A DNA stretch of 64,000 nt from Geosiphon pyriformis uo1 (lineage: Eukaryota > Fungi > Glomeromycota): assembly GCA_016748015.1 (NCBI GenBank), contig JAAOMT010000512.1:1374893-1438892 (forward strand). Reading direction: 5' to 3'. Below the pieces are notes generated by a model, which saw nothing but the letters and a program-made list of their open reading frames with translations, had not been told where the DNA came from and searched no databases. Below, piece by piece: positions 27,701-62,600 of this stretch (the first letter of the stretch is position 1; each line of letters starts with the position of its first letter). Made by a program: the position numbers and the translations under genes.

Positions 27701-28713
27701 CTTTCTTCTCAATCATTGACTTAACTGCTGGATTCTGGCAAATAGAAATGGATCCAGAAAGCAGAAAGAAAACTGCCTTTATCACCAAGTATGGCACCTA
27801 CGAATTCACAGTCATGTCTTTTGGTCTCACAAATGCTCCTCTCATCTTTCAACGCTTAATGGACAAAGTATTTGAATCAGTAAAAGAAAACTTTGTTCTA
27901 GTCTATTTGGATGACATAATGATATACTCAAAAACCTGGGATGAACACCTTGAACATTTGCAAAAGGTTTTTGACCTCCTTAGAAATGCTGGCCTCAAGA
28001 TCAATCCAATTAAATCATTCTTTGGACGTCAATCCACCCAGTTTCTTGGCCATCTTATTACAAAAGATGGAATTTTCTCTGATCCAGCCAAAATTGAAAA
28101 AGTTCAAAACATTAGACAACCAATAAATGTTTATAAACTACGCTCTTTTCTTGGTTTGGCCTCTTATTACCATAAGTTTGTCAAGAATTTTTCCAAAATT
28201 GCCACTCCTTTTAATCAGCTACTTAGAAAAAACATCAATTATCACTGGGGCACTCATCAACAAAAAGCATTTGAAATTCTGAAGGAAAAACTGGTTACAG
28301 AATCCATTCTCATGCAACCTAATCTGGATTAACCTTTTATCCTCCATACTGATACATCTGGCTATGAACTTGGTGCTGTTCTTTCCTAGAAAGATGAAGA
28401 TGGCAAGGAACATGTTGTAGCATATGTTAGTAGAACTCTCACACCAGCAGAAAGGAACTACTCAGTCACTGAGCAAGAATGCTTAGCAGTAGTTTGGGCT
28501 ACCAGCTACTGGGACAAATATCATAAGAGTGTAAAATTTTTGGTGGTAACAGATCACCAAGCTTTGGTTTGGCTATACAATAAAAAAAACCTGGAACATA
28601 AACGGATAACTTGCTGGATACTCCACTTGGATGAATTTGACTATGACATTCAACACCACAAAGAAGCTAATTATCAAAATGCCAACATTCTCTCCAGACT
28701 TACCATCCAGTAA
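24798..28713 (+). pseudogene. Element B gag (to 26028) and pol (26019-28713: PR, short Cys motif, RT, RNase H); no dUTPase seen
   Basis: ORF-track fragments 24298-28332. RNase H ends ...NANILSRLTIQ followed by TAA TAG. Confidence 0.88.
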
Positions 28714-28778
28714 TAGCAAAACCCTCTCAAACCAAACCAACTTAATTATTTGTAACTCCCCCACAAACAAACACGATA

Positions 28779-30091
28779 ATGGACTTAGACAACTACTCTG
28801 CCTTAATGGAATTTTTGGATAAAGAACAATACCTGCCGGATTATACTCAACAGCAAAGAGAACATTTGTGTAAACAATCAAATTTCTATTTAATTCGCCA
28901 AAACCAGTTATATAAAAGAAATAAAAAAGATCCTGACTGTTCCCAGAGAGTCATTAGATTTGAAGAAAGAGAAATTGTGATCTACAATATGCACACTGAT
29001 CCATTAGCTGGACACTTTGGAAAAACAAAAACGATTCAGAAAACTTTAGCTTGCTATTATTGGCCTACCTTGAGAAAAGACATTGCTGAATACATTAAAA
29101 CCTGTGATACCTGCCAAAGAAGAGGAAAACCCAATCGCAAGGAAGATATCCATTCAATCTTTGTTGATCAACTATTTGACAAAATTGGTATAGATGTTGT
29201 TGGACTTTTAACAGTAATTCCTGATGGCAACAGATACATTATTACAGTTACCGACTATCTTACAAAGTGGGTAGAAGCAAGAGCCACCCCAGATCAAATA
29301 GCATTTTCAATTGCCAATTTCATTTATGAAGATATTATCTGTCACCATGGCTGCCCCAAAAAACTTTTATCTTATAAAGGAAGAGCTTTTCTCAGTACAT
29401 TGGTTGAAGAACTTTGCAAAAAAATGGGAATATGTCATAAACTCTCTTCTTCTTATCACTCTCAAACAAATGGCCTAGTAGAATGTTTCAATAGAACACT
29501 ATGTGAAACTCTAGCCAAAACCAGTGAAGAAACCAACCTATAGGACAAAGTATTGCCTTCAGCTTTGTTCACCTACAGAACTGTGAATCATGACATAACA
29601 AGTTATGAACTCTTTTATCTGCTCTATGGACGAATGGCAACTCTACTAATAGAAATGGATATAGAAACAATACCTTTTGAAAAAATAACAATAGGAGATT
29701 ACAAGAACATTTTGCAAAGAAGACTTGGTATTATTCTTGATTCATTGGTAGAAGCATGGATAATTGCCTTTGAAAAGATAAAACAGTTCCAAGAGAAGCT
29801 CAAAAAAAAAAGATCTATAAAACACTTTCCTTAAGTGTTGGTGACTTAGTTTTGGAATACCATTCAGACAGAAACAATGTCTATGGTGATAAATTCTCCA
29901 GCCGCTGGAAAAGACCTTTTATAGTTAACAAAGTTTTGAATAATGGTTCATATATCCTACAAGATCAATATGGAACAATATTCAGTAATCACCCTGTTCA
30001 TGGCACATGACTCAAAAAATATCACAAATGACCTGATTGGTTACCTGTTGTGGTAATACCAACCCAAATGATCAGCAAAAATCAGATATAA
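28779..30091 (+). pseudogene. Element B stand-alone integrase ORF (HHCC, DDE, GPY/F-like tail, no chromodomain seen)
   Basis: MDLDNY...HTDPLAGHFG...CDTCQ...IGIDVVG...DYLTKW...QTNGLVE. Confidence 0.88.
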
Positions 30092-30132
30092 ATAAATGCA
30101 CCATTCCCAAAACAGAGGTATCTTCAATCGAC

Positions 30133-30786
30133 ATGAACAATTATTTCTTGGATCAAAACATTCAAAATGCTTTCTATACTTTCCATGAGTACTGAATCAA
30201 AAACTATCCAAATGTTACTCTGACTATCAGAAAACAAACCACCATAACAGATAACAGTGGAACTCACACTGTTATCAGACCAAAGAAAACAACTACCAGA
30301 AGAGAAAGAATTGGTGGCAAAATGGATAAATACCTGCTGGAAAGCATAACAGCAGCGATACTTTCATCTTCCAGCACAATTGGAAAAATGATACAAGAAA
30401 TCTTGCCCATAGACAAAAACTTGTCATATGGAAGACAACTAAAACTCTATGGTCGTCTTGGTGAAATCATAGAAGACATGAAGTTTATGAAGAAAACAAC
30501 TTCAGAGATACAAGGGGAAATTTTGATTATATGATTGGATGTCCCAAGAGTTTTGATCATTGCTAAAAGAGCCAGAACTCTTATACAAAGATTTGGTCTC
30601 TTGGATACAAAACTTATTTCACCTCAAGTATTATATACCCTATCCACAAAAGACTTCAACAAACTAGTTAGTTTTGAGTTAGACAAAACCCTTTACATAG
30701 ACTATCCCATAAATAGCTTGATTTCACTGGAGCTCAATCTCTTTGGAGAGGATAATGTTATGGTTGAAACTCATAGTTTTTATTAG
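30133..30786 (+). pseudogene. Element B ORF3, unknown function, runs through the PPT into the 3' LTR
   Basis: A single frame MNNYFLDQNIQNAF...KLYGRLGE...AKRARTLI...ISPQVLYTLSTKDFNKLV with two TGA stops compatible with CGA>TGA. Confidence 0.7.
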
Positions 30787-32784
30787 TTATCACATGTATT
30801 AGCCACTGATGTTATATAATTAGCCACCCTATTTTTAGATAGTGATTGTTGACCTGATCAATGACCTGATCATTGACCTGATCATTAACCTGATCGTTGA
30901 CCTGGTCATTAATCACTTTAGATAGCTATATAAGCAATGATTCCCTTAGCTATAGAAAAACATGATCAAAGTAATGAAATAAACAATATTAATTACTTCC
31001 TCTCATAATCGCTTATTCCCCTTTCCTTACCTTTAAGTATCTACTTGTTGGTATTTACATACCTTATCTTTTCCCTTTCTTGATTTGTATTTGTTAGAAT
31101 TAGTCTGAAAAACAATTGGCTTGCTCTTGTAATTCATTGAATAAAGAAACGATTGAAAAGCACAACAATACCTGTTATTGATTCTAAGAATTGCCAAGTT
31201 GAGGCATAAAATAATAGCAATAGTGTTATCTTGTTGACAATTATGGACTATTTTTCTACCTTCAAATTTAAGAAAAGATTAGTGATTGTGATTTTTATGA
31301 GACTGATCACACACATTGAATTCCTACTTATTCAATTTGCTCTCTTATTGTAATTCCCTCTTTGTTTATTTCCATTACCATACAATACTGTTCTCCCTTG
31401 CTATCCATTAGCTTGTTACTCCAACCCATAACAATAGGAAGGTCTTGGTTATTAATTTTGTTTTTTTGCTTCTAATGCTCTTGCTATATATACATAATTT
31501 AGGTTCTATGAAATCACTTACATTCTTAAGCAATGTGTTATAATTTTTTAAGCAATATGCTCACATGCTAACTACTACTTTCCTATTGGTCTATTTGTTT
31601 TTCTACTATTTTCTTTTATATATTTTTTTTATGAATAACATTATCTTCTCCTTTTAATATTAAGCTTTGTCAAAATCTTCACTTTAAATTAAGTCTAATA
31701 CTTCTTTTTTTAATACTGTTTGTTTAACTTTGTTTTTTATATTTTCAATTTGTACATTGTTTATTCTTCCCTATTGGTTAATGTTGATTGTCTCCATGTT
31801 GGGATGTAACAATATTTCTGGATAATTTTAAAATATCATGTATAATCAATAGATTTGTTTTCTTTCTAATAATATTTTCAATATTTTGTATTATTTCTTG
31901 ATTGAATATTCTTTTGGTTTTATCAAAATATAATTTCTGAATGTTCAACTTTTGTCCTAACTGATAGTAACAATATAGTATTAGAAGTTGTTCTGTTCAT
32001 TGTTTCTAATTATCTTTTGAAAGTTTTTTTGTTAGAATTATAATGGGTATTTTCCCAAATGTGTTCTTTACTTTTTCTACTATTTTATCTGACCAGTTTT
32101 TTAATTGTTTTTGTAGTCACTGGTATGGTATACTTTTTCTTTTTGTTTGGTGTTTTGATAGCAGATTGTTAGGTGGTTGATATTAATTTTCATGTTTAAT
32201 TACTGTTAACCTAAGGTCTGAAACAATTGTTGAACTAAGGTGTGAATATAATCTGGTATTTCCATTTTCTTTGTTGCTTTTGTCACATATACTGTGTTTT
32301 TATATACTTTTTTAGTTGTTCAATTTGACATGTTTGGTTCAATAATTATGATTGGTTTTAGATCTTATGGAATCTCATTTGGTTTGACTAGTATTTGTTG
32401 TACTCCCAGTTGTGGAATATTATTGGTACAGTGAACTCTCTTTATAATTACACATTTTGGTCAGCACATTTATGATGATTATAGAGAGATGAGATTATAA
32501 AAAATAATTAATATCTTATCACATGATTTATATATTACATATATAATATAATAACCAATTATAAATATTTTATTTAAAAAAGCTATCTATTTGCAACTGT
32601 TTTTTCTCTTCTTGAACTTTGAGAACAGTATTATGAATTAATGTTCTCAAAGTTTTAAAAAACTCTGAATCAACTTTTTTACTATATTGCTCTTCACAAT
32701 AGCACAATATATCTTCAAGTGCAGTTTTATCTTAATGTGTAGATAGCAAAGACAAAAATTCATTTTCATTTTCACTTTCTAAAT

Positions 32785-33246: not shown

Positions 33247-35585
33247 TAAACAGAATGGATGATGAAAATCTTATTCGAGATTTTTACATTTTTAAAAAAT
33301 ACCTCCAAACAGCCACAACAATTAACATGACAATAATAATTCAGTTTGCTGTTACTCATATAAAAAAAACAGATATAGAAAAATAGTAGACCAATAAAAA
33401 AGTAGTAGTTAGCATATAAGCATATCACTCAGCAATGTAGAACAATGTCAAGAAAATATGGCATATTGCTCAGCAATGTGAGCATTGCTTAAGAAATTAT
33501 AGCACATCACTCAAGAATGTGAGCAATCTCATAGAACCCAAATTATGTATATATAGTGATAGCATTAGAAGTAAAAAAAGACAGATCTTTCTATGTAGAT
33601 TTCATCTAAGTGACCTTCTACTTCACAAATATCAATAAATAATTATTCTCTATCTCAAATTTACTCTCCACTATCAACACTTTATGTTGATAATAATTGA
33701 TACTTAAACATACTGAAACAACAGCTCTTAATCATGGCTATTGATGGAATACTAACTTGCAATTGCTTTTACTTACTTCTTTTATTTTCTTTTATTTTAT
33801 TATTTCTTTGTTTGACTAATCAATTAAAGATTAAGCACTGAGTTATTGACATCAAGAATAGCCTGGTAAAAGACCCTAAAAAAAGGGTATAAAAATTATA
33901 TATATTAACAGATAGCTTACCAAAAGAGCATCTCTGCCAAGATTACTGGCCACTATGCTAAGAAAGAAACTTGACAGAATTGCAATTCTGAGAGACTATT
34001 GAAAAGACAGCAATTAAATCTTTCTATTATACAAAAGATTCAACTAAAATCTTCAGACACAAACAACACTTTCTAATATCTCCAAGCAGAACAATCAATT
34101 GAGCACCAAGTTACAGGTTTGTTATTTGATTTAAGACCCCAAATAATCACTTGTAACATTTGGTGTTTCCTGTAAGATATAATCCTATTGAGAATGGCAC
34201 CACTAACAATCATTCAAAAGTGGCAGAATCAGAAATTATAGAGACAAATCATTTAGGATTTGCCAAATTCTTATTTCAATAGTACAGCTAACAATTAGGA
34301 CTAACCAACAACCATTATTCAGCAGAATCCACTTTTAACTTTTACATCAACAAAAAGATCACAAACTGTTTAAGAGGAATAGTTGACATTGAATTAGCAA
34401 GAAAAAACTTTTACACAAAATTATTTCAACACACCAACTTACCAAGAAACTACAGTTTCACACAAATTATCAGGGAAATCAATCAAACTATTAAAAGGTA
34501 CACCCAACAACAATTTTCTATCACATACACAGACAAAGGCAAAGAAAGATTGCAAACCCCAGCAGTAACACCCAAAACAATACAACCACCCACTTGAAAG
34601 AAAAACAGAGTTGAATCACCAACAAACCCATTATACCACTATACACTCGGAAGCACAATCAACATCATATCAACAGGCATGTCCACATTAACCACGACAT
34701 CCACATTTAGATGATTTTCATTTCAGAGTAAACAAAGGAAAAAAAATCTTCTAGGACTATATGGCACATATTTTGAAGAATTTAAGTTATGGTTGCCAAT
34801 GCCATCAGGACTTTGATCCCTGCCACCCCAACCAGATTTCAAAACCACAAGTCTCTGAAAAGTAACAAAATTGGAGAAAAAACAGAAAGAAGAGAAAGAA
34901 AAATCTGAATATCAAGAATTTACTTACCAAAACCTGATTCCAGAAAACCTGGAAATTAAAACCCCAAACTTTCAAACTCAGCAAAATCTAAACTTAGAAA
35001 ATCCAGAAATCGGAACTCCGAATATTCAAATACTGCCAAATTAAGACAATCCAAACCCTGAGTTAATTAATCAGCAAAACTTATCTTCAGTAATTATCAT
35101 TGATTAGCCACTAGTTAAACCAATCCAACTGCAACAAATACTACTACAACAATTACAACAGCTGCTTCAACAGCCGCAACAACAACTTTAACAACCAAAC
35201 TTGGATCCAAAAGCCTATGTTCTAATAGCAAAACTTGAGAAATTCACTGGTGAAAAAGACAATGCCCAAATATGGCTTAACGACGTTGAAAAAGCCATTG
35301 TGGCCAACAGATAGAATGACCCAAGAGCACTCCAAGCCATTTTTTATTTCTTATAGGATACCGCCAACTTATGATATCAAAGTTTAGTTGCCAAACTCCA
35401 AACATTCCAGGAATTTAAAATCACATTCTTAGGATACTTCAGTAATAATAATAGCATTAACCAATTGGCAAACACTTTCACCACCATTAAACAAGAAGAA
35501 AATGAAGCAGTCACTACTTACTTAAGACACTTTCACAAAAATTTGTGCCAAATTCAGACCATATAGGCTGATTATTTCACAGTGC

Positions 35586-36572
35586 TGTTACCAGATAAAA
35601 TTAGAGATATTATTTAGCATAAAATTACTCTTATAATTTCTATTATTAATTAGCACATATTATCATTTCAATTTACCATTTATTATATTATCAAAATATT
35701 CGAAATTATTATTTAATTAATAAATCAACTTGTACAGAACACAAATGTAACTTAATTGCGATGATCAATTATGCAATACCCCAAACTATGTAACATTTAA
35801 GAATTCGCTGAAATTTGTAGAAATTCCCCGAAATAATTGATAGTTTACTGAAATATTCAATAGTTCGCAGAAATAACTTGTAGTTCACCAAAATGTAGCT
35901 TTAGTTCAGTGAAATTGTAGAAAAAAAACAAAGTTCAAGTTCATAGAATAGAGTTATGACAAGTTGTATAAAAAAAGAGCTTCTCTCTTTGAGAAAATGT
36001 ATCTTACTTTTAGATTTAGTAATTAGAATCATTTCTATACACACAAAAACAAAATAAATATTAAATAAATTTGAAAAATCAAATTCTCAATTATTTTCCT
36101 TGAAATTAACCAATTTCTACCAACAGTTTGAAATTGACTAGCTACCAATTTCAGTAAACTGTTAAAGCACTTCCAGGCCTAGATCTGAAACAACTTCCAT
36201 AAATTATTTCACTTTGCTTTTACATTTTTTTTATTTTTATTTTTTTATTTTTCTTTTTATAAATCATTAGAGTAGCCTACAGACGAGAATTCCTGTAGAA
36301 GAGTTGACTTTCACAGTAAAATAACTACACATTTTAGTGAGCTTCCAGACAAGCAATTTCTGGAAAAGAGTTGATGTTTACTACAATGTAACTACACAAG
36401 TAACTGGCATGGAATTGGCCATTCCACTTATAAGCCCAGTAGTTCAAATTATAGAAGATAATTTGAAGATAAATTCAGTTACTGGAGGTTCAACCACATC
36501 CAAAAAATGTGAATTCATAACAAACAGGCATCAACAACATTTAAAAAAAGAGACCAAAAATCTCCGGTAACA
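35586..36572 (+). mobile_element. Solo LTR (family Y) inserted in the gag of element C; TSD GTGC
   Basis: TGTTACCAG...GGTAACA, with GTGC at 35582-85 and 36573-76. Homologous to the LTRs of E and F. Confidence 0.95.
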
Positions 36573-38573
36573 GTGCCACAAATTCTAAATCAATTCATTA
36601 AAGACCTGTGTAGTAGCATCCTCCAACACATGCACCCAATGCATTCAATAGACCTTTAAGCCACAGTTACAAATGTTAAAAATTTTGAAGCCACTGAACT
36701 CAAAGCTAACCATGCTCAAGCCATTAATCTGGTAATAAATAGATCATCTAAATTGGATTCCAAATTGAAACAATTTAGTGATTCTATCAATCAGAAATTA
36801 GAGGAATACTTAGCTAACAATTGCACAATTTATCAACCACCACAATGATGCAACAATTCCGGAAATGCAAATCATTTCCAGAATCAATTGCATTCAACAT
36901 CTTTAATCAATCAACAATGACAGCAGGAGATGCATGCTTGCCACTATTGTGGTAAACAAGAATATTTACAGTTTGAATGCTGTAAATGGCTAAATGAACA
37001 AAGATCAGGCCATCAGTATTGAAACTCTGATTGCCAACTACAAACTCAGAATTATGTCAGTAATCAATTACCAAAAATATATTAACCAAATTATCTACCT
37101 ATGACACCACAGCCAATCTATCAACCACCAATTTATCAGCCAACAACACTCATCATTTATCAGCCACAGTCTCAGATAATTTATTAGCTCCAACAAATTC
37201 AAGCACTACCACAGAACTTACCTTAAAATAGAACCCAAAGACCAAGACTGACACAATAAAGCTGGAGATTGTTGATGATCATCTATCAACCAATTCTCAG
37301 TTCCTCGAACCAGCCATCAAGATCTCGACAATAGAATCCAGGCACTGGGAACTCTCAAAACCCAAATTCCCAACACTATTTAAGTCTTCTGGTCTTCCCA
37401 GAAAACACCCAACCCAATAACCTAGAAACCAATTAACAACTAACCTTTACCAGTAACATTCCACTAGCTACCATCACCAAGAACAAATTACTGAATGCCA
37501 TCTTCCCATTTGAACTCAAAAAACTGTCGATCATACCGTTATTTAGTGGAGCCACTCTAGAAGAAAAACTTATTATCACCATGTACACTGATGCCAAAGT
37601 TAATGGCCACTTTATCAAACAGATCCTAGACAGTGGATCAGCTGGTAACATCATTACAAAACAACTTATGAACCAATTAGGTTATCAAGTTGATCACACT
37701 GCTAGTGCCAGGATTATAACCACTGTTACTCATAAAAATATAGGGAATATATATTAGCATAGTTATTAACCAATCAGAAGTAGACATAGTAAAATGTGGA
37801 ATTTCAGAATTCCTTTCAAGAATTGCAAGATTTCAGGAATTACAAGATTTTCACAAGGAATCACAGGATTTCAGAATTCCAAGATTTTTTTCAAAGAAAT
37901 TGCAAGATTCCAGAAATCTCAGGATTCTTGTTGTGAAGAATTGAGGAATTGAGGAATCTTATAGCAGTAGAATTAGAAGCTAAAAAGACAGACCTCTAAG
38001 TTTAGATTTCATTTAGACAACCTTCCAAACACAATAAATAACTATTTGGTATCTCAAACTTAATTCCACTATTAACACTCTATGTTGATAGTAATTGATA
38101 ATTAAACACATTGGAACAATAGCTCTTGATCATGACTATTGACAAGATACTGACTTGCAAAATCATCTTGGCTTATTTATGATTTTCTTTTATTTCTTTT
38201 CTTTATTTTATTTTGATTTTATTGTTGTGCACTAATTGGTTGAATAAAGTGCTAGATTACTGATGTCAGAAATTGCTTGGTAAAAAACCCCTGCGAGAGG
38301 GTAGGACATGTACAAAAGATACAGAATACTTACCAGAGGATTGCTGGCCATTACGCTGAGAAAAGAATTGACAGAATTGTGATTCTGGGAAGCTACAGAT
38401 AAAACAACTATTGAATCTCTGTCCATTATACAAAAAACTTAATCTGAAACCTTCAGATACAAAACCTTTAGATACAAAACCTTCAAATTAATAATATCAA
38501 TGCAAATAACTTTTAGCACCAAGTTACAGGTTTGTTATTTAATTTAACACCCTAAATAATCACTTGTAACATT

Positions 38574-38590
38574 TGGTGCTCCCTGTGAGG
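38574..38590 (+). promoter_or_regulatory. Primer-binding site of element D, probably for elongator tRNA-Met
   Basis: TGGTGCTCCCTGTGAGG lies 2 nt after the LTR and is complementary to a tRNA 3' end ...CCUCACAGGGAGCACCA. A decayed copy, TGGTGTTTCCTGTAAGA, is at 34161 in element C. Confidence 0.7.
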
Positions 38591-41500
38591 TATAATCCTA
38601 CAGAGAACCAGCACCAACAACCCCATCCAAAAGTGGCAAAATCAGAAAACATTGGAGCAAACTATCTAGGATTCACAAAATTCTTATTTCAACATTACTG
38701 TCAACATTTGGGATTAATCCATAATTACATATTAGCAGAATCAGCTTTCAATTTCTACGTTAATGAAAGAATTGCCTATCTATTAAGAACATTTGTGAAT
38801 ATTGAATCAGTAAGAGAAACTTTTTACAATGAATTAATTCAAAACACCAGCCTATCCACAAATCATAATTTCACATCTATCATTACTGAGATCAACAAAG
38901 AAATTGAACACCATATACAACAAAGATACCCAATTACTTACACAAGTAAAAGCAAAGAAAAACTACAAACACCAGCAGTAACATCTCAAAGGATACAACC
39001 ATCCACTTGGAAAAAAACTAGAGTTGAGTCTTCAAACAATCCATCTTACCACTATACTCCTGGAAGTGCCATCAATATATCATCAACAGACGCATCTACA
39101 TCAAACACAACATTAGCATTTGAACGTTTCTTATTTTAAAATAAACAAAGAAAAGAGGATCTACTAGAACCATACAGTGAGTATTTTAAAGGATTTAAAT
39201 CTTGATTACCGATGTTATCAGGATTTCAATCACTGTCATCTCAACCAAATTTTGTAATCGCGAGTCCTTGGGAAATTACTGAATTGGAAGGAGAACAAGA
39301 AGTAGAAAAGAAAGAAAAATCTGAGGATCAAGAATTTACTTACCAAAACCCAATCTTAGAAAACCCAGAAATTGAAACCCTAAACTTTTAAACCCAGCCC
39401 AATTTAGACAATTCAGAAAATAACACTCTAAATATTCAAACCCCACCAAATCAGAACAATCCAAACCCCAAAGTAATTAATCAACACTTACTTCCAGTTA
39501 TCGTCATCGACCAATCACTCATTGAACCAATTGGCCAGCCCATTCAACTACCGAATCAACAAAATCAACAACCATCACCAGTACTGTCCCAACAACAACA
39601 ATAACTTCTACTACCACAGCAACAACAAATAGCTTATGCACCCATTGCAAAACTCAACAAATTCAATAGTAAAGAAGATGACGTCCAAGTCTGGTTAAAT
39701 GACATGGCCAAAGCCATTACAGCCAATAATTGGGATGATGCTAGAGCAATGCAAGCAATCTCTTATTTTCTCCAGAATACCACTAATGCATGGTATCAAA
39801 GCCTTGCTATCAAACCCCAAAATTTTAATGGATTCAAAACTGAATTCTTGCAGTACTTTAGTAACAATAATAGTATCAACAAATTAGCCAACACCTTTAC
39901 AACTATCAGACAAGGAGACACTGAAGCAGTCACTACCTACTTGGGATGCTTCCATAGAAATCTATGCCAAATACAAGCCATTCAAGCTGACTATTTTACA
40001 GTGCCACAGATTTTAAATCAATTTATTAGAGGATTGCGCAGTAGCATCCTACAACGAGTACGTTTAATGCACCCAGTGGACCTTCCAATTACAGTCACAT
40101 ACATCAGAGATTTTGAAGCAGCTGAACTAGAAGCTAATCATGCTCAAGCTGTGAATCTAGCAATGAATGGATCATCTGAATTGGATTCCAAATTGAAGTA
40201 ATTTAGTAATTCAATTAATCAGAAATTAGAGGGATACTTAGCTGACAATCACATGATTTATCAACCTCCTCAACAGTGTAACAATTAGGAAAACGCAAAT
40301 TGTTTCCAAAATCAGTCACGTTTATTGTTATCATCCAATTAGTCATGGCAGCCAGAGATGCATATCTGCCACAACTGTGGTAAACAAGGACACATCAGAG
40401 CCAACTGCCATACTTATAGCAATCTATGACTGGAAAATCAATATAAAAACCCCAATCGCAGGTTCCAGACTCCGAACCATCACCTAAATCAAGACCAATA
40501 CCAATCCACTTACCTGCCTATAATGCACCAACTAATTTATCAACTGCCAGTTTATCAACTGCCATCACAAGCAATTTATCAGGTGCAGTCACAAGTAATA
40601 TATTAACCACAGCTACCAGCAATCTATCAAACACTCACCATTTAAATGTCATCAGTAAACCCAGCTCAAATGACATTAGGGAACCCAAAATTGAGGATCA
40701 CCCAAAACTGGAGATTGGTGATGGTTGTCCACCAACTAATCCCCAGCTCATCAACCTCACCATCAGGGTTGCAATCTCAGAATTCAGGCACCAGTCACAC
40801 CCAGAACCCAAATTTCCAGAACTATTTAAGTCTTATAGTGACCCCAAAAGACACCAAACCCAATCATCCAGAAAACAACCAACAACCACCACTCATCAGC
40901 AACATTCTATCAGCAATATTTACCAAAAACAAAACTCTTGCTGCCATCTTTCCTTTTGAATTAGAGGAAACTGTCAACCCACTGTTGTTCAGTGGAGCAG
41001 CACTTGAGAAAAAACCCATTACTGTGATGTACACTGATGCGAAAGTTAATGGGCACTCCATCAAACTGATCCTAGATAGTGGATCAGCTGGCAGCATCAT
41101 CACAAAACAACTCATGAACCAATTAGGTTGCCAAGTTGATTGCGCTGCCAGTGCAAGAATTATCATTGCTGATAGAGCTACCAAAACTCCAATTGGCAAA
41201 ATAGATGACTTCCCCATCGAAATCAATGGTATCACAATACCCATCAAAGTTCTGGTGATGAAAGCCACTTAGTATCAAGCACTTATTGGCAATGATTGGT
41301 TATCCAAAACCAATACAATACTCAACAAGACCACCCAAGAACTCCAACTCAGCCAAAATGACTGACACACACGAGTCTCAGCAACATGTGGCTATTTCAA
41401 ACTCAGCAATGTCAGAACAACAACACCACTTATTGAATTTGAGAAGGAAGAAAACAAACCAATATGGGAAGTGTATTAAGTATTATGGGCCGATGTCGAC

Positions 41501-50500: not shown

Positions 50501-51100
50501 CAGATTTGGAGGGTTCTTGTTTGATATTTCAAAAACGATTGCGAAGAGTAATGGAAATATTATTGTCGGTAAACTGTTCAAAAAAGGCTGCTTTGAAAGC
50601 ATTCCAATCATTGAATGAGGTGGCAAGGTTTTCAAACCATTCTCCTGCTGTTCCTTTGAGAAAGTAGGGTATTGTTCTTAACATTCTGGCAGCATTCCAT
50701 CCATTTGCATCTCCAGCTTTAGTAACTTGGTCGAGCCATTTTTGGGGACTGGTCTCAATATCTTCTCTATTGAATTCAGGGATTTTTGCAATGTATGTTG
50801 TCATTTTGTCTTCTTTGTTTTCACTGTCTATTGATTCTTCTTCGGTTTTTTCAGAGTTGTTTTCTTCATTTGCTGCTGTCTCAAAGTGTTCACTTTGATT
50901 TTCAGCTAGAAAATCAAGGAGATTGGAACTAGTTTGAAGGAGTTCTTGTTGTCTGGTGGGACTTCTGAGTGATGTAAAATTTTCTGGTCTTGCAAATCGA
51001 TTCAAGGGTGAATTAGGTGTTTGTGCTTGTGCAAGTGAAGCTGGAAAAGGTGTGATAGTAAGTAGAAGTTTTGAACTGGTTCCCTGTTCAGGTGTTTGTA

Positions 51101-51886
51101 NNNNNNNNNNNNNNNNNNNNNNNNNNNNNNNNNNNNNNNNNNNNNNNNNNNNNNNNNNNNNNNNNNNNNNNNNNNNNNNNNNNNNNNNNNNNNNNNNNNN
51201 NNNNNNNNNNNNNNNNNNNNNNNNNNNNNNNNNNNNNNNNNNNNNNNNNNNNNNNNNNNNNNNNNNNNNNNNNNNNNNNNNNNNNNNNNNNNNNNNNNNN
51301 NNNNNNNNNNNNNNNNNNNNNNNNNNNNNNNNNNNNNNNNNNNNNNNNNNNNNNNNNNNNNNNNNNNNNNNNNNNNNNNNNNNNNNNNNNNNNNNNNNNN
51401 NNNNNNNNNNNNNNNNNNNNNNNNNNNNNNNNNNNNNNNNNNNNNNNNNNNNNNNNNNNNNNNNNNNNNNNNNNNNNNNNNNNNNNNNNNNNNNNNNNNN
51501 NNNNNNNNNNNNNNNNNNNNNNNNNNNNNNNNNNNNNNNNNNNNNNNNNNNNNNNNNNNNNNNNNNNNNNNNNNNNNNNNNNNNNNNNNNNNNNNNNNNN
51601 NNNNNNNNNNNNNNNNNNNNNNNNNNNNNNNNNNNNNNNNNNNNNNNNNNNNNNNNNNNNNNNNNNNNNNNNNNNNNNNNNNNNNNNNNNNNNNNNNNNN
51701 NNNNNNNNNNNNNNNNNNNNNNNNNNNNNNNNNNNNNNNNNNNNNNNNNNNNNNNNNNNNNNNNNNNNNNNNNNNNNNNNNNNNNNNNNNNNNNNNNNNN
51801 NNNNNNNNNNNNNNNNNNNNNNNNNNNNNNNNNNNNNNNNNNNNNNNNNNNNNNNNNNNNNNNNNNNNNNNNNNNNNNNNNNNNNN
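51101..51886. other. Assembly gap (N run)
   Basis: Run of N covering the end of the E 5' LTR, its PBS and the start of gag. Confidence 1.
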
Positions 51887-52066
51887 ACAATAATTAAAGA
51901 ATTTGGTTTTTCGAATTATTTGATATTTATTTCTTTTTGTGTGTATAGGAACGGTTTTAAGAGATAAATCTAAAGTAAGATATATTTTCTCGAAGAGAGA
52001 AGCTTTTCTTTTATACAACTTGTCATAACACTATTCTATGAACTTGAACTTTGCTATTTTCTACAA

Positions 52067-52186
52067 TTTCGCTGAACTAAAGATACATTTCGGCGAACTA
52101 CAAGTTATTTCTGCGAACTATTAGATATTTCGGTGAACTATCAATTATTTTGGCAAATTTCTATAAATTTCGGCGAACTTTTGAAT
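52067..52186. repeat. About 20-bp tandem array in the family Y LTR (core ATTTCGGCGAACT)
   Basis: Five to six consecutive units. Also present at ~43405-43520, ~35800-35915 (reverse) and ~63270-63370. Confidence 0.85.
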
Positions 52187-54593
52187 GTTACATAGTTTGG
52201 GGTATTGCATGATTAATCATCGCAATTAGGTTACATTTGTGTTGTGTACAATTTGGATTATTAATTAAATGATAATTTCGGACATTCTTTGCTAATGTAA
52301 TAAGTGATAATTTGAAACAATAATATATGCTAATTAATGATAGAAATTATGAGATAGTTTCATGCTAAATGATATTTCTAATTTCGTCTGGTAACACTGC
52401 ATTGATTTGAAAATAGCACTGGAAATTTTGGCAACAACAATGGTTCAATTAGTATCTAGGAGTAGTTTAGCAAAAAGAGGGATAAATATAAGAGGAGGAA
52501 TAATTAATATGAGATATATAAGAAATATCATCACCATGCTACAAAATAACTTAGAAAAGGCCTATATCATAGAGCCAAACAAAAAGATAGCACAAGCAAT
52601 CTTCCTGCCTCTGGTTAAAGTAGCTCAATTAGTATCAGTGGGAAACAAAAAAGAACTAGGGATAACAGCAAGAGGGATACAGGGATTTGGATCCACAAGT
52701 AGAATAGATATACCAGTCAATATGGTGAAGGAAAAAATTATTGGCCAAGGAGAAATTATCTCAACCAGTCAAACAATTTCTATTTCACCATATAGCAGAT
52801 ATATGTTAGCAATAAAAAGGAGAGAGAAGATGCAAGAACAGATTTTTGAAGCAAAAACAACCCTTTGTGAATCAGGAGAAATTGGACTTATCAATTTACA
52901 CATACCAGCCAAGAGCCATAACCATATCAAAATTCCCATCTACAACAACACTGGAAATGTTGTAGAGATACTGGAAAGAACTACTCTCGGATATTAACCA
53001 CGGAAATTGAAGATCAAGTACCAAGCAGCATTCCAGATTTTCCACAGCTTTGTGGATATGTAGACATTACATCACAAACTATCTATAGACAAAACGAGTG
53101 TTATCTGTTACAGCCAGAACAATTGAAACAGATAAACATAGAAAATCTAGACTCACTTCAACAGATGCAACTAAAGATGTTACTCAATAATTTCAATGAC
53201 ATCTTCACCAGTGAAAACAAATTTGGCAGAACTGATATTATCCAGCATCAGATCAAGACTGAAGATACAATGCCAATTAAACAGTAAGCATATAGGGTAC
53301 CACCAGCCAGCTATAAAATCATTTGTTAAGAGATCAACCGAATACTTGACAATGGGTTAATTTAGCCATCAATGAGCCCATGATCATTACCAATAGTACT
53401 TATCTGTAAAAAGAATAGAAAAATCCGATTTTGTGTAGACTACAGGAAACTCAATGGTGTAACTCATGGAGACAACTATCCAACTCCATGGATACAAGAA
53501 CTATTCAATACTTTCGGTGGAAACAAATGGTTCTCAATGTTAGACTTGGATAGTGGTTACTGGCAAGTAGCCATGAATCCAGCCAACAAAAAAAAAATGG
53601 CATTCACTACAAGAGAGGGAAACTTTGAGTTTGAAGTTATGCTATTCAGCTTAATCAACACTCCAGTTACATTTCAATAGCTAATGAAAATTGTGTACCC
53701 CAGCTTATTGTGAAAATCAGTAGTTGTATACTTGGATGACACCAATATGTTCTCAAAAACATTTGATAATTATCTACATTATCTCCAACAAGTGTTCGAA
53801 AGACTACGATGAGCAGGATTAAAATTGAATGCAACAAAGTGTTTTTTCAGCAAAACAGAACTAAAATTCTTGGGACACATAGTTAGCAAAGATGGCATAA
53901 AAACAGATTCAGAGAAAATAGAGATAGTAAAGAACTTTCCAATACCAACCAACGTAACCGAACTGAAATCATTTTTGGGATTCATGAGTTATTATAGATG
54001 CTTCATAAAGAATTTTTCAAAGATAGCACAACCACTTAATGATCTTCAAACCAAAAATGCAAAGTATAAATGGACTGAAACCCAGCAAGAAGCATTTGAC
54101 ATCTTAAGAAAAAAGCTTATTCAAGCTTCAGTATTGATCTATCCAGATCATAGTAAACTATTCATTATTACCACTGATGCATTAGATCAAGTATTGGGAG
54201 CAGTACTATCTCAGAAAAGATTGGATGAAAGAGAACATCCAGTCACATATGCCAACCAAGGTTTGACTCCAGCCAAAAAGAACTATGGAACACCAGAATT
54301 AGAACATCTAGCAATTTATTGGGCAGTTATGAAATGGAAAAAATACTTGAGCCAAAAGTTTGAGGTGTACACAGATCACAAAAGATTGACATCACTCCAA
54401 AAACAAAAATTTGGAAATGGAAGACAGTTAAGATGGAAAATGGCTTTTTCGACATATACTTATACCATATATTATAAAAAGGGAAAAGACAACGGAAATG
54501 CCAATGGTTTGTTGCGAATGAAACAAATCTAAGAATATTTCAACCCAAAAATATAACAAAACCAAAACAATACTTATGAAAATATAACAAAAG

Positions 54594-55977
54594 ATGAACA
54601 CACAAAAATATTAACAACTTCAACATTATATAGATACTCAACAGTTCAAGAAGAAATTATCTCAACCAGAACAAAAGAGAATCAAACAACAATCCAAATA
54701 TTTTATCACTCACCAAAATATACTTTATCAGAAAAATAGAAAAGATTCAGATCAACCAACCAGAGTAATTACAGAACCAGAAAAGAAGACAATACTGTTC
54801 AATATGCACTCAGATTTAACTGCAGGACATTTTCATAAAGAAGCAACCATAGAAAGAACCAGAAAAAGATACTATTGGCCATCAATGTATTCAGACATCA
54901 TCCAATATGTGCAAAATTATAATGCTTGTCAAAGAAGAGAAAAAACAAAACCCAGCAAACCATTGAGACCAATCAAAGTGAGACAACCATTTGACCGTAT
55001 TGGAATTGATTTAGTTAGATTATTGACAATTACCAGCAGAGGCAACAGATATATTGCAGTAGTCATAGACTATCTTATTAAATGGCCAGAAGCCAAAGCA
55101 ATTCAAAGAGCAGATACAGAATCTATTGCCAAATTCGTCCATCAAGATCTGATTTGTCAACATGGATGTCCAAAAGAATTATTATCAGACCAAGGAATCC
55201 ATTTTGTAAATAGAACATTAGCAGAACTAAGCCAAAGATTCGGAATTAAGAGACCACTATTATTATCATATCATCCACAAACCAATGGATTAGTTGAAAG
55301 ATTTAATAGAACATAGTGTGAAGCAATAACAAAACTCAGCCAAGAAAATCAGGATGAATAGAATTTGTTCATACCATCAGTATTATTTGCTTATTGGACA
55401 ATGAAGCAAGACACCACACAAGCAACACTATTTAAATTGATATATAATAGAACAGCAACATTACCAGTTGAGATAGAGGTTAATACATATCCAACTGAAC
55501 CAATAACAGAAGAGAATTTCCAAAAAACATTGTTAAGAAGAACATATGACTTAATGGAAACATTGGAAAACAAACAAAAAAGAACAGCTGATAACATACA
55601 AAAGTCACAAAAGAAACAGAAAGAAAGACATAATAATCAACTACCAGACAAACCAGTTGAATTCAAGAATTGGAGACAAAGTACTCTTATATCGTACCAA
55701 AGTGGAAAAACAATGAAGTGGAAAATTTGACCCCAAATGGGATGGACCATTTCACATAGAAAAAATTCTAGGAAATGGAGCTTACAAATTAAGACTGGAT
55801 AACAAAATCTTAACCAAAACAGCACATAAAGATCGACTAAAACCATACCACAACATCACACCATCATCTACCAGTAATATTCCACAATTAGGAGTACAGA
55901 AGATACTAGTCCAACCAGAGGAGATTCCATGAAATTTGAAACCAATCATTATCATTAACAATAACATGTTAAATTAA
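54594..55977 (+). pseudogene. Element D stand-alone integrase ORF
   Basis: ATG lies 61 nt after the pol stop and in a different frame. HSDLTAGHF...ACQ...IGIDLV...DYLIKW...SDQG...YHPQTNGLVERFN...KWDGPF. Confidence 0.88.
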
Positions 55978-56001
55978 TCCATCAAAAAAATATATAAAGA
56001 C

Positions 56002-56661
56002 ATGGTAAATGTAACAAGAAATATTAGAAAAATAGAAATTACAGACAACATCTACTCACTAGCACAACAACTTTTTCAATTAATTCAATACCAAGAGATA
56101 GAAATTACAATTAATCAACAAACCATCTAATATCAAGACACTAGAAAGACATTGCCACATAAAACACAGAAGAAAACAGAAAATACTATTGACAAAATTA
56201 TTGTGAAAGTAAAATTAGCAATAAAAAAGTTGACAAAAGAGTCACTATACCAAGAGTTAACTAAAGAAACTTGGAATTGGTGGATATAACAATTTCCAAG
56301 AAACTATTGTTATTTTTACTTGGGACAACATGTGAATATCCAGAATCTATATACAGATAAAACAAAGCAATAATTCGACACAAAAATACTACAACAATTA
56401 GAACATTTTTTGGGAAAAAACAACTTATCTACACAGGCCTGAGCCATATACCGAATACACACAGCATTTCAGGATCAACCAGAAATCTTACTCAACAAAG
56501 CAATGAATACAGTTATCAGTAATAAATTAGAAAAAATCACCAACACTCAATTTGAAGAATTACAGACTTAAATAACACAAGTAATTCTCAAAAATGAAAT
56601 TCAGAAAATACTTTAAGAAGGAGAATTAACAGAGTTAGATTTCAATGGAGCTCAATATTAA
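56002..56661 (+). pseudogene. Element D ORF3, about 220 aa, unknown function
   Basis: A single frame from ATG 56002 to ELDFNGAQY* just before the PPT. Internal stops are all TAA/TGA compatible with CAA/CGA deamination. Confidence 0.72.
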
Positions 56662-59600
56662 AAGGAGGGAATAATATTACTCATAGAAATATAAGAAATA
56701 TATATTAGCATAGTTATTAACCAATCAAAAGTAGACATAGTAAAATATGGAATTCCAGGATTCCTTTCAGGAATTGCAGGATTCCAGGAATTCCAAAATT
56801 CCTGTTGTGAAGAATTGAGGAATTGAGGAATCTTAATTATGTATATATAACAGTAGGATTAGAAGCTAAAAAGACAGACCTTCAAGTTTAGATTTTATCT
56901 AGACAATCTTTCAAACACAATAAATAACTATTTAGTATCTCAAACTTAATTCCACTATTAACACTCCATGTTGATAGTAATTGATACTTAAACACACTAA
57001 AACAATAGCTCTTGATCATGGCTATTGATGGGATACTGACTTGCAAAATTGCCTTGGCTTATTTATGATTTTTTTTTATTTCTTTTCTTTATTTTATTTT
57101 GATTTTATTGTTGTACACTAATTGGTTGAATAAAGCACTAGATTACTGACATCAAAAATTGCCTGGTAAAAGACCCCTGTGAGAGGGTAAGACATGTACA
57201 AAAGATATGGAATACTTACCAGAGGATTGCCAGCCATTACACCAAGAGAAGAATTGACAGAATTGTAATTCTGGGAAGCTATGGATAAAACAACTATTGA
57301 ATCTCTGTCCATTATACAAAAAACTCAACCCAAAACCTTCAGATACAAAACCTTCAGATACAAAATCTTCAGATTAATAACATCAACGCAAAAAACTTTT
57401 AGCACCAAATTACAGGTTTGTTATTTGATTCAACACCCTAAATAATCACTCGTAATACTGCTGATGGAGCAACCAAAACTCTTATTAGTGAAATTGACGA
57501 CTTTTCTATCAAAGCCAATAGTATTATTGTCCCAATCAAAGTATTAGTCATGGAAGCCACCCAATACCAAGCACTCGTTGGTAATAATTGGCTATTCAAA
57601 ATCAATGCATTGCTTGATTAGAATACGCAGGAGCTTCAAATTAGCCAGAATGGCCAACACACACATGTACCAACTACATGTGGCCATTTCAAGACCACCA
57701 ACTCAACAACACCACTCATCAAGTTTGAGGAAAAAAAGAAGAAACCTACCTGAGAAGCCTATCAAGTGTTATGAACTGAAGAAGACCACAACAAGTTACC
57801 ACTAATACTCTCTTGGGACGATAATGGAAATGGAAAAAAAAAGGAAAAACTTATTTGGAACACCAACCAAGACTGAGAAACTAACAATGACTCAAACAAA
57901 CTACCAAACTGAGAATAAGAAGAAACTGACAAAAAAAAAGAAGGAAGAAGATCTAACCAAAGAAACAACTGCTACAGAAGAAATAACTAGTAACTGAGAA
58001 AAAAACTACTCATAGGAACTGATAAAAGAGCCACCATATATATTCCTTAAATATAAAGACTGTGGAAAAAAACTTTCTTTCATGAGAGCTTGGGTCATGC
58101 CAGATGAAGATTACTAAATGCAAACCCATTATTATTGCAAGCCATGCCACTGCAAATGCTATGGCTATCCAAAAAGACAAGACAAGTAGGACAATGAACT
58201 ATGTCTCGCTTGCAGTAAACAACTACTGGATGAAGGAATGTGGAACAACATTCCTGGACGAGGAGGAACATGCAATGCTTTATGCCAATATACAATCTTC
58301 ATCAGTAATTGGATGAGTTATGATATGCCAATAACTGCTGTCTGGCACTGTGTGATATCTCACTTGGACAGTTACCCACATAATAAAGACAAAATCTGGT
58401 GGATGACAAATGCCAAAGTAGAAAGTACCACACTTAGCAAAATATTAGAAATCAAGAATAACTTTCCAAAACCAGTCAATATTGTTTTGATTCCCAATCT
58501 AAATGCTTTCCTGAACCTGGAAACAGACCCAGAAGAATTTCATAAGCACTACCAAAATTTGGCACCAACAAGAAAGGAACAAGAGCAGCATTTAGCCCAA
58601 ATAAACACCTGACTATGTGACCATTGTTTGATCCCATGTGACTTTCAATATTGTAATGAGTGTAACCTTATTTACAATTTACCACCATGCATAATCTACA
58701 CAATTTCAGAGGAAGAACCAATTAGCAGCTGCACATTAGAATTAGAACCAACTTTTAATCCTGATTCAAACTTTGACAACGATGACAACAAAAATAACAG
58801 TTTTAGCTCTGTTCAATGTGGCAATGAAAAATATAACAATTTGAACTCCGATTCAAACCCCAAAACATATATCACACTCCCTAATCTTACCAAGGAACAG
58901 GAACTTAAATGGTTCAGCAATAATAATGAAAGTATTATGCCAGAACGTGCACACAATACTAATGCAGGGTTTGATCTAAGATATCCAGGGAAAAATGCCA
59001 TCAAATTGGAATCACATTTACACACATGCATTGATCTCAAAGTAACACTAGAAATTCCAGCAACAACAATGGTTCAATTAGCATCTAGGAGTAGTTTGGC
59101 AAAAAAGGGAATCAATATTAGAGAAGGAATAATTGACACAAGATATATAAGAAATATTATTACTATGCTACAAAATGATTCAGAAAAAACCTATATCATA
59201 AAGCTAAGTGAAAAGATAGCACAGGCAATATTCCTGCCTCTGGTAAAAGTAGCTCAATTAGTATCAGTAGGAAACAGAGAAAAATTAGGGATTACAGATA
59301 GAGAGATACAGAGTTTTAGATCAATGAGTAGAATAGATATACTAGTTAATATGGCAGAGGAAGAAATTATTAACAAAGGAGAAATTATCTCAACTCATCA
59401 ATCAATTTCTATTCCACCATATGACCAGTATATGTTAGCCATAAAAAAAGAAATAAAGAATCAAGCTCAGTTGTTTAAAACAGAAGCTACTATTTGTGAA
59501 TCAGGAGAAATTGGACTCACTAATCTCTACCTATTAGCCAAAAGCCCTAAAAACATCAAAATTCTCATCTACATCACAACTGGAAATGTTATTGAGATAC

Positions 59601-62600
59601 CAAAAGAATTCATCATCGGATATTTAACCACCAAAGGGAAGAATCAACCACCAAACCACATTTCAGATTTCCCACAGCTTTGCAGATATGTGGATATTAC
59701 ATCACAAACCATTTATGGACAAAGCAAATGTTATCTGCTCCAATTAGAACAATTGGAACAAATAAATTTGGGAAACTTAGACCCACTTCAATGAATGCAA
59801 CTCAAGATGTTGCTCAACAATTTCAATGACATCTTTGCCAGTGAAAATAAATTTGGCAGAACTAACATAATCCAGCACCAGATCAAGACTAAAAATACAA
59901 TGCCAATAAAACAAAAAGCATATAGAGTATTACCAGCCAGCCATGAAATCATTCGTCAAGAAATTAATTAGATGCTTGACAATGGGCTAATTCAGTCATC
60001 AATAAGTCCATGGTTATCACCAGTGGTATTAGTCTGGAAGAAGAATAGAAAAATCTATTTCTGTGTAAATTATTGAAAACTGAATGGAGTAATCAAAGGT
60101 GATAGTTATTCAACTCTAAAGATCCAAGAACTATTTGATGCTTTTGGAGGAAATAAATGGTTCTCGACACTAGATTTAGATAGTGGTTACTAACAAGTAG
60201 CCATGAATTCAGCCGACAAAAAGAAAACAGTATTTACCACAAAAGAGAGAAATTTTGAGTTTGAAGTCATGCCATTTGGCTTGATAAACACCCCAGCAAC
60301 ATTTCAACAGCTTATGGAAATTGTCTATACTGGATTACTATAGAAATTAGTAGTCGTATACTTGAATGACACCAATGTGTTCTCAAAAACATTTAATGAT
60401 CATCTGCATCATCTTCAACAAATGTTTAAAAGATTAAGAAGAGCCGGATTGAAACTAAATGCAACTAAATGTTTCTTTGAAAAAACTGAACTCAAGTTTT
60501 TGGAACATGTGGTAAGCAAAGATGGAATCAAAACGAATCCAAACAAAATTGAAATTGTTAAAAACTTTCCAGTACCAAATAATCTCACAAAATTGAGAGC
60601 ATTTTTGGGATTTGCTAAATACTACCACCACTTCATTAAAGACTTTTCCAAAATAGCTCAACCACTACATCAGCTTAAAACAAAAAACACCAAATATGAA
60701 TGGACAGAAACCCAACAAAAAGCTTTTGATACATTAAGAAGAAAGCTTATTCAAGCCCCAGTACTGATCTATCCAAATTATAGTAAGTCATTCATAATTA
60801 CAACTGATGCATCTGATCAAGCATTGGGAGCAGTACTATCACAGAAAGAATCAGATGGAGAGAACATTTAGTAGCTTACATCAGTAGAAGCTTAAGTTCA
60901 GTAGAAAAAAACTATAGAACTCCAGCACTAAAACACTTAGCTATCTATTGGGCTGTCATCAAATGAAAAAAATACTTGAGTCAAAAGTTTGATGTATATA
61001 CTGATCACAAAGGATTAACTTTAATTCAGAAACAAAAATTTGGAGATGATCGCCATGTCAGATAGAAAATAGAACTTTCATCATTTAATTATACAGTACA
61101 TTACAAAAAAGAAAAAAACAATGAAAATGCTGACAGATTGTCATAAATGAGACAAATTTAAAAACATTTCAACCCAAAAATATAACAAAAGATGAATATA
61201 CAAAAATACCAACAACTCTAATATTATATAAATACCCAATTGTTCAAGAAAAAATTATCTCAAAAAGAATAAAACAACATAAAACAGCAATCAAAACATT
61301 TTATCAACCATCAAAATATACTTTATTGGAAAAACAAAAAAAATCCAGACCAACCAACCAGAGTAATTACAGAACCAGAAAAAGAGACAATATTATTTAA
61401 CATATACTCAGACCCAACAGCAAAACATTTTTATAAAGAAGCAATCATGAAAAGAACCAGAAAAAAATACTATTGGCTATCAATATATCCAGACATCATT
61501 CAGTATATTCAAAATTGTGATGTTTGTTAGAGAAGAGGAGGAACAACACCCAGTAAATCATTAAGACTAATCAAAGTGGGACAACTATTCGATCATGTTA
61601 GAATTGACTTAATCAAACCATTAACAATCACCAGCAGAGGCAACAGATATATTGCAGTAGCCATGGACTATCTCACTAAATGGCCAGAGGCAAAAGCTAT
61701 TCAAAGAGCAGATGCAGAATCCGTTGCCAAATTTGTTCATCAAGATTTGATCTGTCAGCATGGATGTCCAAAAGAACTACTATCAGATCAAGGAACCCAC
61801 TTTGTGAACAGAACATTGACAGAATTAAGTCAAAGATTTGGAATTAAAAGACCATTATTATTATTATACCATCTACAAATGAATGGCTTAGTTAAAAGAT
61901 TTAATAGAACACTGTGTGAAACAATCACAAAAATCAGCCAAAAAAATCAAGAGGAATGAGATTTGTTTATACCATCAGTATTATTTGCTTATTGGACAAT
62001 AAAGCAAGATACCACACAAACAACACCATTTAAATTGGTATACGGTAGAACAGCAACATTACTAGTTGAGATAAAAGTCAATATATATCCAACTGAACAA
62101 TAACAGAAGATAATTTCCAAGAAACATTGTTGAGAAAAACATATAACTTAATGGAAACACTAGAAAACAGATAACGAAAAGCAGCTGATAACATCTAAAA
62201 GTCACAAAAAAAGCAAAAAGAATGATATGATAATCAACTACCAAATAAACTGGTTAAATTCAAGATTGAAGACAAAGTACTATTATATTATACCAAAGTG
62301 GAAAAACAATGGAGTGGAAAATTTGACCCCAAATGGGATAGACCATTTTACATAGAAGAAATTCTAAGAAATGGAGCTTATAAATTAAGATAAAACAACA
62401 AAATTTTAGCCAAAGCAGCATATAGTAATTGACTGAAACCATATTACCAGATAGTATCATCATCCACCAATAACATTCCACAATTAGAAGTACAAAGAAT
62501 ATTAGTTCAACCAGATGAGATTCCACAAGATCTGGAACTAATCATAGTTATTGAACCAAACACATCAAATTGAACAACCAAAAGAGTATATAAAGACACA

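Follow-up and report, generated by a model that had tools for sequence, protein, structure and literature searches.

A 64,000-nucleotide (nt) stretch of the Geosiphon pyriformis genome (contig JAAOMT010000512.1, positions 1,374,893 to 1,438,892; hereafter the window) carries four long terminal repeat (LTR) retrotransposons, here called B, C, D and E. They belong to a group of Ty3/Gypsy elements whose Pol gene stops after RNase H and whose integrase (IN) is a gene of its own with its own start codon. Ty3/Gypsy elements are defined by domain order and phylogeny, not by the fusion of Pol and IN, and the separate-IN layout is a new form of this organisation. The layout itself is real, while the mechanism by which IN is expressed is one that we infer.

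Within the window, the split was confirmed to be real and not a product of decay. The Pol/IN junctions fell exactly where the initial annotation had placed them in all four elements (Table 1), with Pol ending four codons past the LSR-equivalent of RNase H in 4/4 cases and with re-measured spacers of unchanged length (65 nt in B, 49 nt in E, 61 nt in D and 30 nt in C). An RNase H profile built from relatives ends at 28698 (B), 45958 (E), 54517 (D) and 61143 (C), and an IN profile of the same origin begins at 28779, 45890, 54594 and 61192, respectively, i.e. at IN position 1–2, in agreement with the proposed start at an aligned Met. Premature stops in these decayed open reading frames (ORFs) number 26 per 2561 codons (~1 per 100), a rate from which the chance of three further stops at the same codon is ~1e-6. 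C and D, which are 79.5% alike over 3.6 kb, are one family, so that the four junctions come from three independent families, as had been proposed. An earlier reservation, namely that C alone would fit an open read-through from RNase H into IN, did not hold: C contains a second Pol-frame TAA that it shares with D and is therefore no exception to the split. The +1 frame offset of D was seen again, but its source is a ~31-nt partial duplication, which follows a C-like 30 nt in the D spacer and brings in an AUG. Among 8799 contigs from one DNA run of the same organism, some joins at the D junction skip ~32 nt and leave a C-like spacer, and none of the 40 best-supported of 121 contig differences is a variant of the D stop or the D ATG. 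In B, an IN-frame stop lies 33 nt ahead of the ATG; in E, where ATA stands at the IN start, the nearest intact relative (L018) reads ATG.

The split is also the normal state in relatives. Of 424 metagenomic loci, the best 80 were chosen by their IN core motifs irrespective of length; the IN start is visible in 78 of them, the other two contigs beginning inside IN, and ATG occupies the aligned position in 74/78, with the remaining four within 3 nt. In 52 of the 78 loci the end of RNase H is visible as well, and not one of these is fused (0/52). Instead, Pol and IN overlap by 14 to 4 nt (14 loci) or are separated by spacers of 15–98 nt (30 loci) or 192–943 nt (eight loci, in four of which the stop seems to be a premature one within a long Pol tail). 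As expected if spacer lengths do not vary in multiples of three, all three frame offsets occur (0, +1 and +2 in 9, 21 and 22 of 52 loci). Intact relatives keep the split: the ORFs on both sides are uninterrupted in 21/52 loci (Pol at least 400 aa, IN at least 405 aa), at a median IN identity of 47%. Once overlaps, the four premature-stop loci and five near-duplicates are removed, 32 junctions are left, in 24 of which a stop within the spacer blocks the IN frame, which excludes read-through or frameshifting at those 24.

Protein searches point the same way. Among 120 listed IN homologues, 72 begin exactly at the window's Met, a count that proves nothing by itself given a search limited to 139–445 aa. 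Pol proteins carry IN in 0/61 cases at 55% identity or more, in 5/40 at 52–55% and in 12/19 below, with lengths of 529–1684 aa allowed and some proteins possibly ending at contig ends. Among the best 120 of 825 matches in a search for longer proteins were two real fusions, P0124 and P0132, and four fungal gene models in which parts of Pol and IN are joined; these models miss either the end of RNase H or the start of IN and are unlike one another. In P0124, which is nested among split integrases, reverse transcriptase (RT)–RNase H, IN and the downstream ORF3 form one chain. The layout Gag-Pol / IN / ORF3, proposed to be polycistronic with IN as a free-standing ORF under its own conserved Met, was borne out in relatives. 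Rhizophagus irregularis, R. clarus, Cetraspora, Entrophospora, Gigaspora and Glomus supply named close relatives of IN, Pol or ORF3, and the closest named protein among the listed IN homologues is from Geosiphon pyriformis itself (82% over 129 aa). The named relatives are all Glomeromycotina, and the group is likely to stem wholly from mycorrhizal-type fungi; a viral contig collection gave four weak, unrelated IN matches and a phage collection gave none. In a full-text literature search, a Gypsy element whose IN forms a separate ORF was nowhere described, although Repbase or GyDB entries may hold one.

A separate expression route, as the initial annotation had stated, is needed. Several routes had been named there without a choice, and the statistics of the sequences now speak for reinitiation in the case of IN and for an internal TATA promoter in that of ORF3. 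We think it rather probable that IN is translated from the full-length RNA by termination–reinitiation after Pol, whereby the small subunit would stay on the RNA after the Pol stop and restart at an overlapping AUG or scan a short AUG-free spacer. The amount of IN would then remain coupled to that of RT, since the restart would come after the end of Pol. No triplet is more depleted than AUG in the 15–98 nt spacers (2 observed versus 22.9 expected in 29 spacers, one duplicate dropped; 0/2000 shuffles as low). No such depletion is found after ORF3 (126 versus 125.8) or, for out-of-frame AUGs, over the final 90 nt of Pol (65 versus 67.0 in 43 loci). The Pol end is spared over the set as a whole, so that scanning seems to begin at the Pol stop. 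The overlaps of 4 to 14 nt occur in more than one lineage and seven of the 14 read AUGA, and 11 overlap loci hold 20 AUGs at 30–60 nt ahead of the IN AUG, where they would stand in the way of a capped leader of usual length. ORF3, by contrast, would likely be made from its own short mRNA begun at an internal TATA promoter: TATA-like words precede 24/33 ORF3 starts (8.3 in shuffles) but only 9/61 IN starts (12.6 in shuffles). The ORF3 TATA box lies 35–60 nt upstream.

In one subset of relatives, an RNA structure just past the Pol stop would assist the restart. A ~38-nt motif immediately ahead of the IN AUG matches strongly in 28/80 loci (e.g. L057:4464–4501 and L037:5193–5230) and weakly in two more; an RNA model was built from 25 of the 28. 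It describes a three-way junction of 12 pairs in which 95.6% of cells pair and seven pairs change on both sides. The covariation score was reached by 0/500 shuffles, and slid controls were 13–45% paired. RNAalifold finds the outer helix and the third one again but misses the middle helix of two pairs, and single-sequence folding does no better than shuffles, for which reason the case for the motif rests on covariation among related sequences. In 14/16 loci the motif begins 21–30 nt after the upstream stop and ends at most 14 nt from the AUG, in nine of the 16 with the upstream ORF taken as Pol although no RNase H was seen; this stop-to-motif distance holds for Pol tails of 4 or about 300 aa. 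One weak unrelated match aside, Rfam gave nothing at E values up to 5 for 20 motif loci, the viral contigs held no exact match to the motif pattern, and in the window the model found nothing convincing (best E 0.018, partial). A likeness to hammerhead or other ribozymes was considered and dropped because the core motifs are lacking.

Other spacers show features of their own. Six loci (L007, L008, L012, L016, L017 and L047) carry GAC/GAT (GAY) words repeated ~13 nt apart in unstructured 74–98 nt spacers in all three frames, RNAalifold found no structure in Rhizophagus-type spacers, and GGA is enriched in spacers (30 versus 10.9).

Several points weigh against reinitiation. The evidence for it is sequence data, and related loci in the set of 80 are not independent of each other. 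Reinitiation after long ORFs is generally rare, and the viral cases treated in the consulted part of one review need stop and start to be close, up to 29 nt (PMC5972666), whereas 22/30 short spacers exceed 40 nt. No word resembling a TURBS (a ribosome-binding site upstream of termination) is conserved at third or synonymous positions in the 90 nt before LSR, and the window's spacers are unstructured and hold no copy of the RNA motif. Simple scanning cannot cross the 192–727 nt spacers of L071, L077, L078 and L080, which contain 6–12 AUGs (L071:6705–7432 and L078:1664–2110 among them; L078 holds a GACCAGGACATGTC-type word twice). Finally, in the 60–100 nt spacer class, mostly one clade, AUG is avoided up to 30 nt into Pol (0 versus 6.7), which also fits the 5′ end of a subgenomic RNA at that place.

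Such a subgenomic RNA, with its 5′ end in or just before the spacer and made from a TATA-less internal promoter or by RNA processing, is a possible though unlikely source of IN. AUG-free spacers and a strong start context (A at -3 in 58/78 and G at +4 in 61/78 loci) suit whatever leader is scanned, an internal promoter seems to be in use already for ORF3, and the four loci with long AUG-rich spacers are better accommodated. The motif could then block 5′–3′ decay in the manner of an exonuclease-resistant RNA (xrRNA), as some viral three-way junctions do according to the excerpted text of PMC11499389. Yet TATA is not enriched before IN, the AUGs 30–60 nt upstream in overlap loci stand in the way, Rfam held no xrRNA match for the 20 motif loci at E values up to 5, and neither a promoter nor an xrRNA gives a reason for the fixed distance from Pol stop to motif.

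Internal entry of ribosomes at the spacer, with no need for Pol to terminate, appears improbable. The unstructured A-rich spacers of the window, the conserved spacer words of one clade and the conserved structure by the AUG of another could all recruit ribosomes, and elongating ribosomes would have to stop ahead of such a site, as they do; however, internal entry predicts neither the start/stop overlaps of several lineages nor the fixed stop-to-motif distance. That splicing brings the IN ORF next to a 5′ leader or a piece of gag/pol in one mRNA, the route taken by errantivirus env and foamy virus pol, is very improbable. Foamy viruses do make Pro/Pol from a separate spliced mRNA (PMC12789967, in the section consulted), and the four fungal gene models join Pol to IN. 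Against this, the spacers show no shared splice acceptor: AG is under-represented in them (55 versus 76.9) and absent from many, and of the YAG positions in the final 90 nt ahead of LSR, none is common to more than 38% of 40 loci. The gene models, moreover, are incomplete and mutually different as prediction artefacts would be. Hardly credible, and as a general rule largely refuted, is the view that the stops are mere decay or that read-through or frameshifting carries ribosomes past them into an ordinary Pol–IN polyprotein: the window shows heavy C>T and G>A mutation, the IN frame of E is open for 60 nt upstream and the fused P0124 and P0132 lie inside the IN clade, but intact relatives retain the split in all three frames, their spacers mostly block the IN frame and Met1 is invariant.

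Termination–reinitiation is known from other systems. SART1 and LINE-1, the hypovirus CHV1, caliciviruses and influenza B likewise have AUGA overlaps or short spacers after a long ORF, and SART1 shares with one subset here a downstream RNA structure. In the portions of the literature at hand, the stop must be followed by structured RNA for coupling in SART1, LINE-1 bridges a spacer of 63 nt and viral coupling at UAAUG/AUGA is described in reviews (PMC5972666, PMC10275272). The present elements differ in that the restart would follow Gag-Pol of an LTR element, in spacers of -14 to 98 nt and of several types, with no TURBS-like motif found.

Four IN trees group the split rows together with moderate support (86; 90; 80/95; 90). 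The fused P0124 is nested in the split clade at high support and P0132 lies inside in three of the four trees; in one, P0113, a row lacking DNA context, falls outside. The trees would fit one origin with rare re-fusion, which they do not establish. In the RT tree, the RT rows mix with Gypsy Pols; this tree is unresolved at its base and neither supports nor rejects one origin.

The suggested link to Ginger/GIN1-type free integrases is neither supported nor rejected. Two of the three Ginger1-like proteins, which carry Ulp1/PHD domains, have Met-Asp at the start position of free IN, which is weak evidence because any free IN must start just before the N-terminal helix. The N-terminal profile matches all three (P0191, P0212 and P0163, at 24–30 bits) but also fused Gypsy INs. 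Each of the four IN trees places the Ginger1-like proteins, represented by only these three rows, apart from the split clade, yet an approximately unbiased (AU) test does not reject their grouping with it (p-AU 0.36). Ginger1 has been placed near Athila/Tat YPYY-type integrases (Bao 2010, PMC2836005, as far as the partial text goes), and the nearest IN relatives among Ty3/Gypsy elements here are Athila/Tat-like. Both groups have a free IN-type protein with an N-terminal YPYY-type segment before the zinc finger, and the same portion of PMC2836005 gives Ginger1 TGTNR ends and GC-rich 4-bp target-site duplications (TSDs). Unlike the elements here, with their LTRs and RT–RNase H, Ginger1 is described there with terminal inverted repeats of 40–270 bp and neither RT nor RNase H; it also carries C-terminal OTU/Ulp1/PHD domains, none of which Pfam detected in the L037 IN or the 120 listed IN homologues. 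Its TSDs read CCGG/CCGT, compared with CTGC (42750–42753), GTGC (35582–35585) and the D flanks CCAC/CTGC (37722–37725, 57456–57459) here, a comparison of n=3 that is blurred by CpG decay. All three of these sites could stem from a central CG by deamination and would then resemble the CCGG preference of Ginger1.

In several respects the elements match Ty3/Gypsy: they have the order Gag–protease–RT–RNase H–IN, LTR pairs that are 88–93% alike and matches to Ty3_capsid, RT_RNaseH, Integrase_H2C2 and rve. The proposed TGT..ACA ends and 4-bp TSDs were seen for E (CTGC) and for a solo LTR at 35586–36573 (GTGC). Differences from Ty3/Gypsy are the position of IN outside the Pol polyprotein (fused in 0/52 loci, carried by 0/61 Pol proteins), the third ORF after IN, which had no Pfam or fold match, the 4-bp TSD and a dUTPase between protease and RT in C (58613–59791, +), D (52395–52994, +) and E (47451–48182, -), absent in B and replaced by a NUDIX domain in some relatives (P0277, P0296, P0298). 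Foamy viruses (Spumaretrovirinae) are alike in having an internal promoter for 3′ accessory ORFs and an enzyme that is not fused to Gag and must be recruited to the particle separately (PMC12789967, same section); however, foamy Pol includes IN and comes from a spliced mRNA, whereas here RT is part of Gag-Pol and only IN is free.

The IN domains are complete. Met1, the HHCC zinc-finger residues and D-D-E are invariant in 58/58 hand-picked near-full-length rows, IN ends at about 420 aa, and its predicted structure (predicted local distance difference test, pLDDT, 87.7) matches foamy virus and Ty3 integrases in full length over ~415 columns. In B, an N-terminal helical segment, HHCC, the DDE core and a C-terminal SH3-like part can be recognised. 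ORF3, of ~140–240 aa downstream of IN, forms one connected family in 35/45 candidate rows; its profile matches 649 clusters (50% identity) and, in the window, the ORF3 of element E at 44072–43776 (E 6e-7), and it is predicted to be all-helical (pLDDT 96.8). No consistent Pfam family was found in 76 members, Foldseek searches of PDB and viral libraries gave nothing at E 0.001, the best VIA Z was 4.5 and Atlas matches stayed below 0.9, negatives that do not establish a new fold. ORF3 extends as far as the polypurine tract or continues into the 3′ LTR (both ORF3 regions of Table 1; L036:1596–2042), and TATATAAA lies just upstream of the D region. Elsewhere, an ORF containing a helix-turn-helix lies downstream of IN (L034:6546–6944), L075 has an extra 118-aa ORF ahead of ORF3, and L072 and L075 differ after IN. 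In L037 (4350–5166), L056, L057, L061, P0263, P0267, P0268 and others, Pol runs 200–400 aa past RNase H through an acidic region and a conserved, probably zinc-binding Cys/His-rich segment; the extension had no Pfam match.

Table 1. Coordinates of retrotransposon features in the window (position 1 is its first nucleotide).
Feature	Coordinates	Strand	Remarks
Element B, decayed Ty3/Gypsy LTR retrotransposon	23872..31193	+	Self-BLAST; N gap inside
B LTR matches	23872–24313 and 30752–31193		93% alike
B RT–RNase H end of Pol	27481..28713	+	Stop TAA 28711–28713, then TAG
B spacer	28714..28778	+	65 nt, A/C-rich, unstructured, AUG-free
B free-standing IN ORF	28779..30070 (end approximate)	+	ATG 28779; one stop, one late frameshift
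Element E, inserted in D	42754..52396	-	TGT..ACA ends, TSD CTGC; dUTPase between protease and RT
E RT–RNase H end of Pol	45943..47190	-	Stop TAG 45945–45943
E spacer	45894..45942	-	49 nt, A/C-rich, no AUG
E IN ORF	44508..45893	-	ATA 45893 at aligned Met position; several stops
E ORF3, helical ORF3 family of the clade	43677..44330 (start approximate)	-	Runs into 3′ LTR
Element D, inserted in C, interrupted by E	37726..57455	+	LTRs 88% alike
D RT–RNase H end of Pol	53291..54532	+	Stop TAA 54530–54532
D spacer	54533..54593	+	61 nt; Pol-frame TAA 54554; one AUG 54576
D free-standing IN ORF, decayed	54594..55980 (end approximate)	+	ATG 54594
D decayed ORF3 region	55990..56750 (limits approximate)	+	Resembles E ORF3 and L018 ORF3
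Element C, same family as D	33350..62604 (start approximate)	+
C Pol stop and spacer	61159..61191	+	Stop TAA 61159–61161, 30-nt spacer; second in-frame TAA 61183
C free-standing IN ORF, decayed	61192..62560 (end approximate)	+	ATG 61192

Element C is broken up by the solo LTR and by D, and an E-family insertion cuts it at 62608. Assembly gaps (N) adjoin the 5′ LTRs of B (24317–24797) and E (51101–51886), where listed ORFs are artefacts. The window also holds host genes for a Tim10/DDP zinc-finger protein (968–1420, -) and a family 2 glycosyltransferase (2114–3360, +), as well as a 1.7-kb inverted repeat (6483–8178 and 8559–10253, 99.8% identical) with no long ORF. LTR sequence makes up 41.2% of the Geosiphon pyriformis genome, according to the accessible part of PMC11952901.

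In Ty elements and retroviruses, IN reaches the particle as part of Pol and normally meets the cDNA there after its release, a compartmentalisation thought to keep IN off non-element DNA (PMC2939329, in extract), while foamy viruses recruit their separately made Pol through Gag (PMC12789967, in the section cited above). A separate packaging route for IN, which the initial annotation had also called for, would follow logically from the split. Made on genomic RNA, IN would most simply co-assemble by binding that RNA or Gag/Pol, and if reinitiation is its source, cis capture is the simplest route. The fusion of IN and ORF3 in P0124 hints at a joint role, as a lead only. Taken together, one can picture, as a possible though unlikely reading, a Glomeromycota-wide tricistronic LTR lineage in which IN would arise by reinitiation after Gag-Pol, with help, in one branch, from a new three-way-junction RNA by which ribosomes would be recaptured at termination. 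The free IN would reach the cDNA independently of a polyprotein, possibly via ORF3, and such an uncoupled IN would be the kind of intermediate behind Ginger1 DNA transposons.

A successful lineage with a separate IN shows that the fusion of Pol and IN is not required. It opens three questions to test: by what means a free integrase locates the cDNA, how translation in a fungus can resume once an ORF of 1,500 codons has been read, and what the new structured RNA by the AUG does. Because the stops are read as decay or are bridged by invented introns in gene models, intact elements of this kind may be overlooked in the genomes of mycorrhizal fungi.

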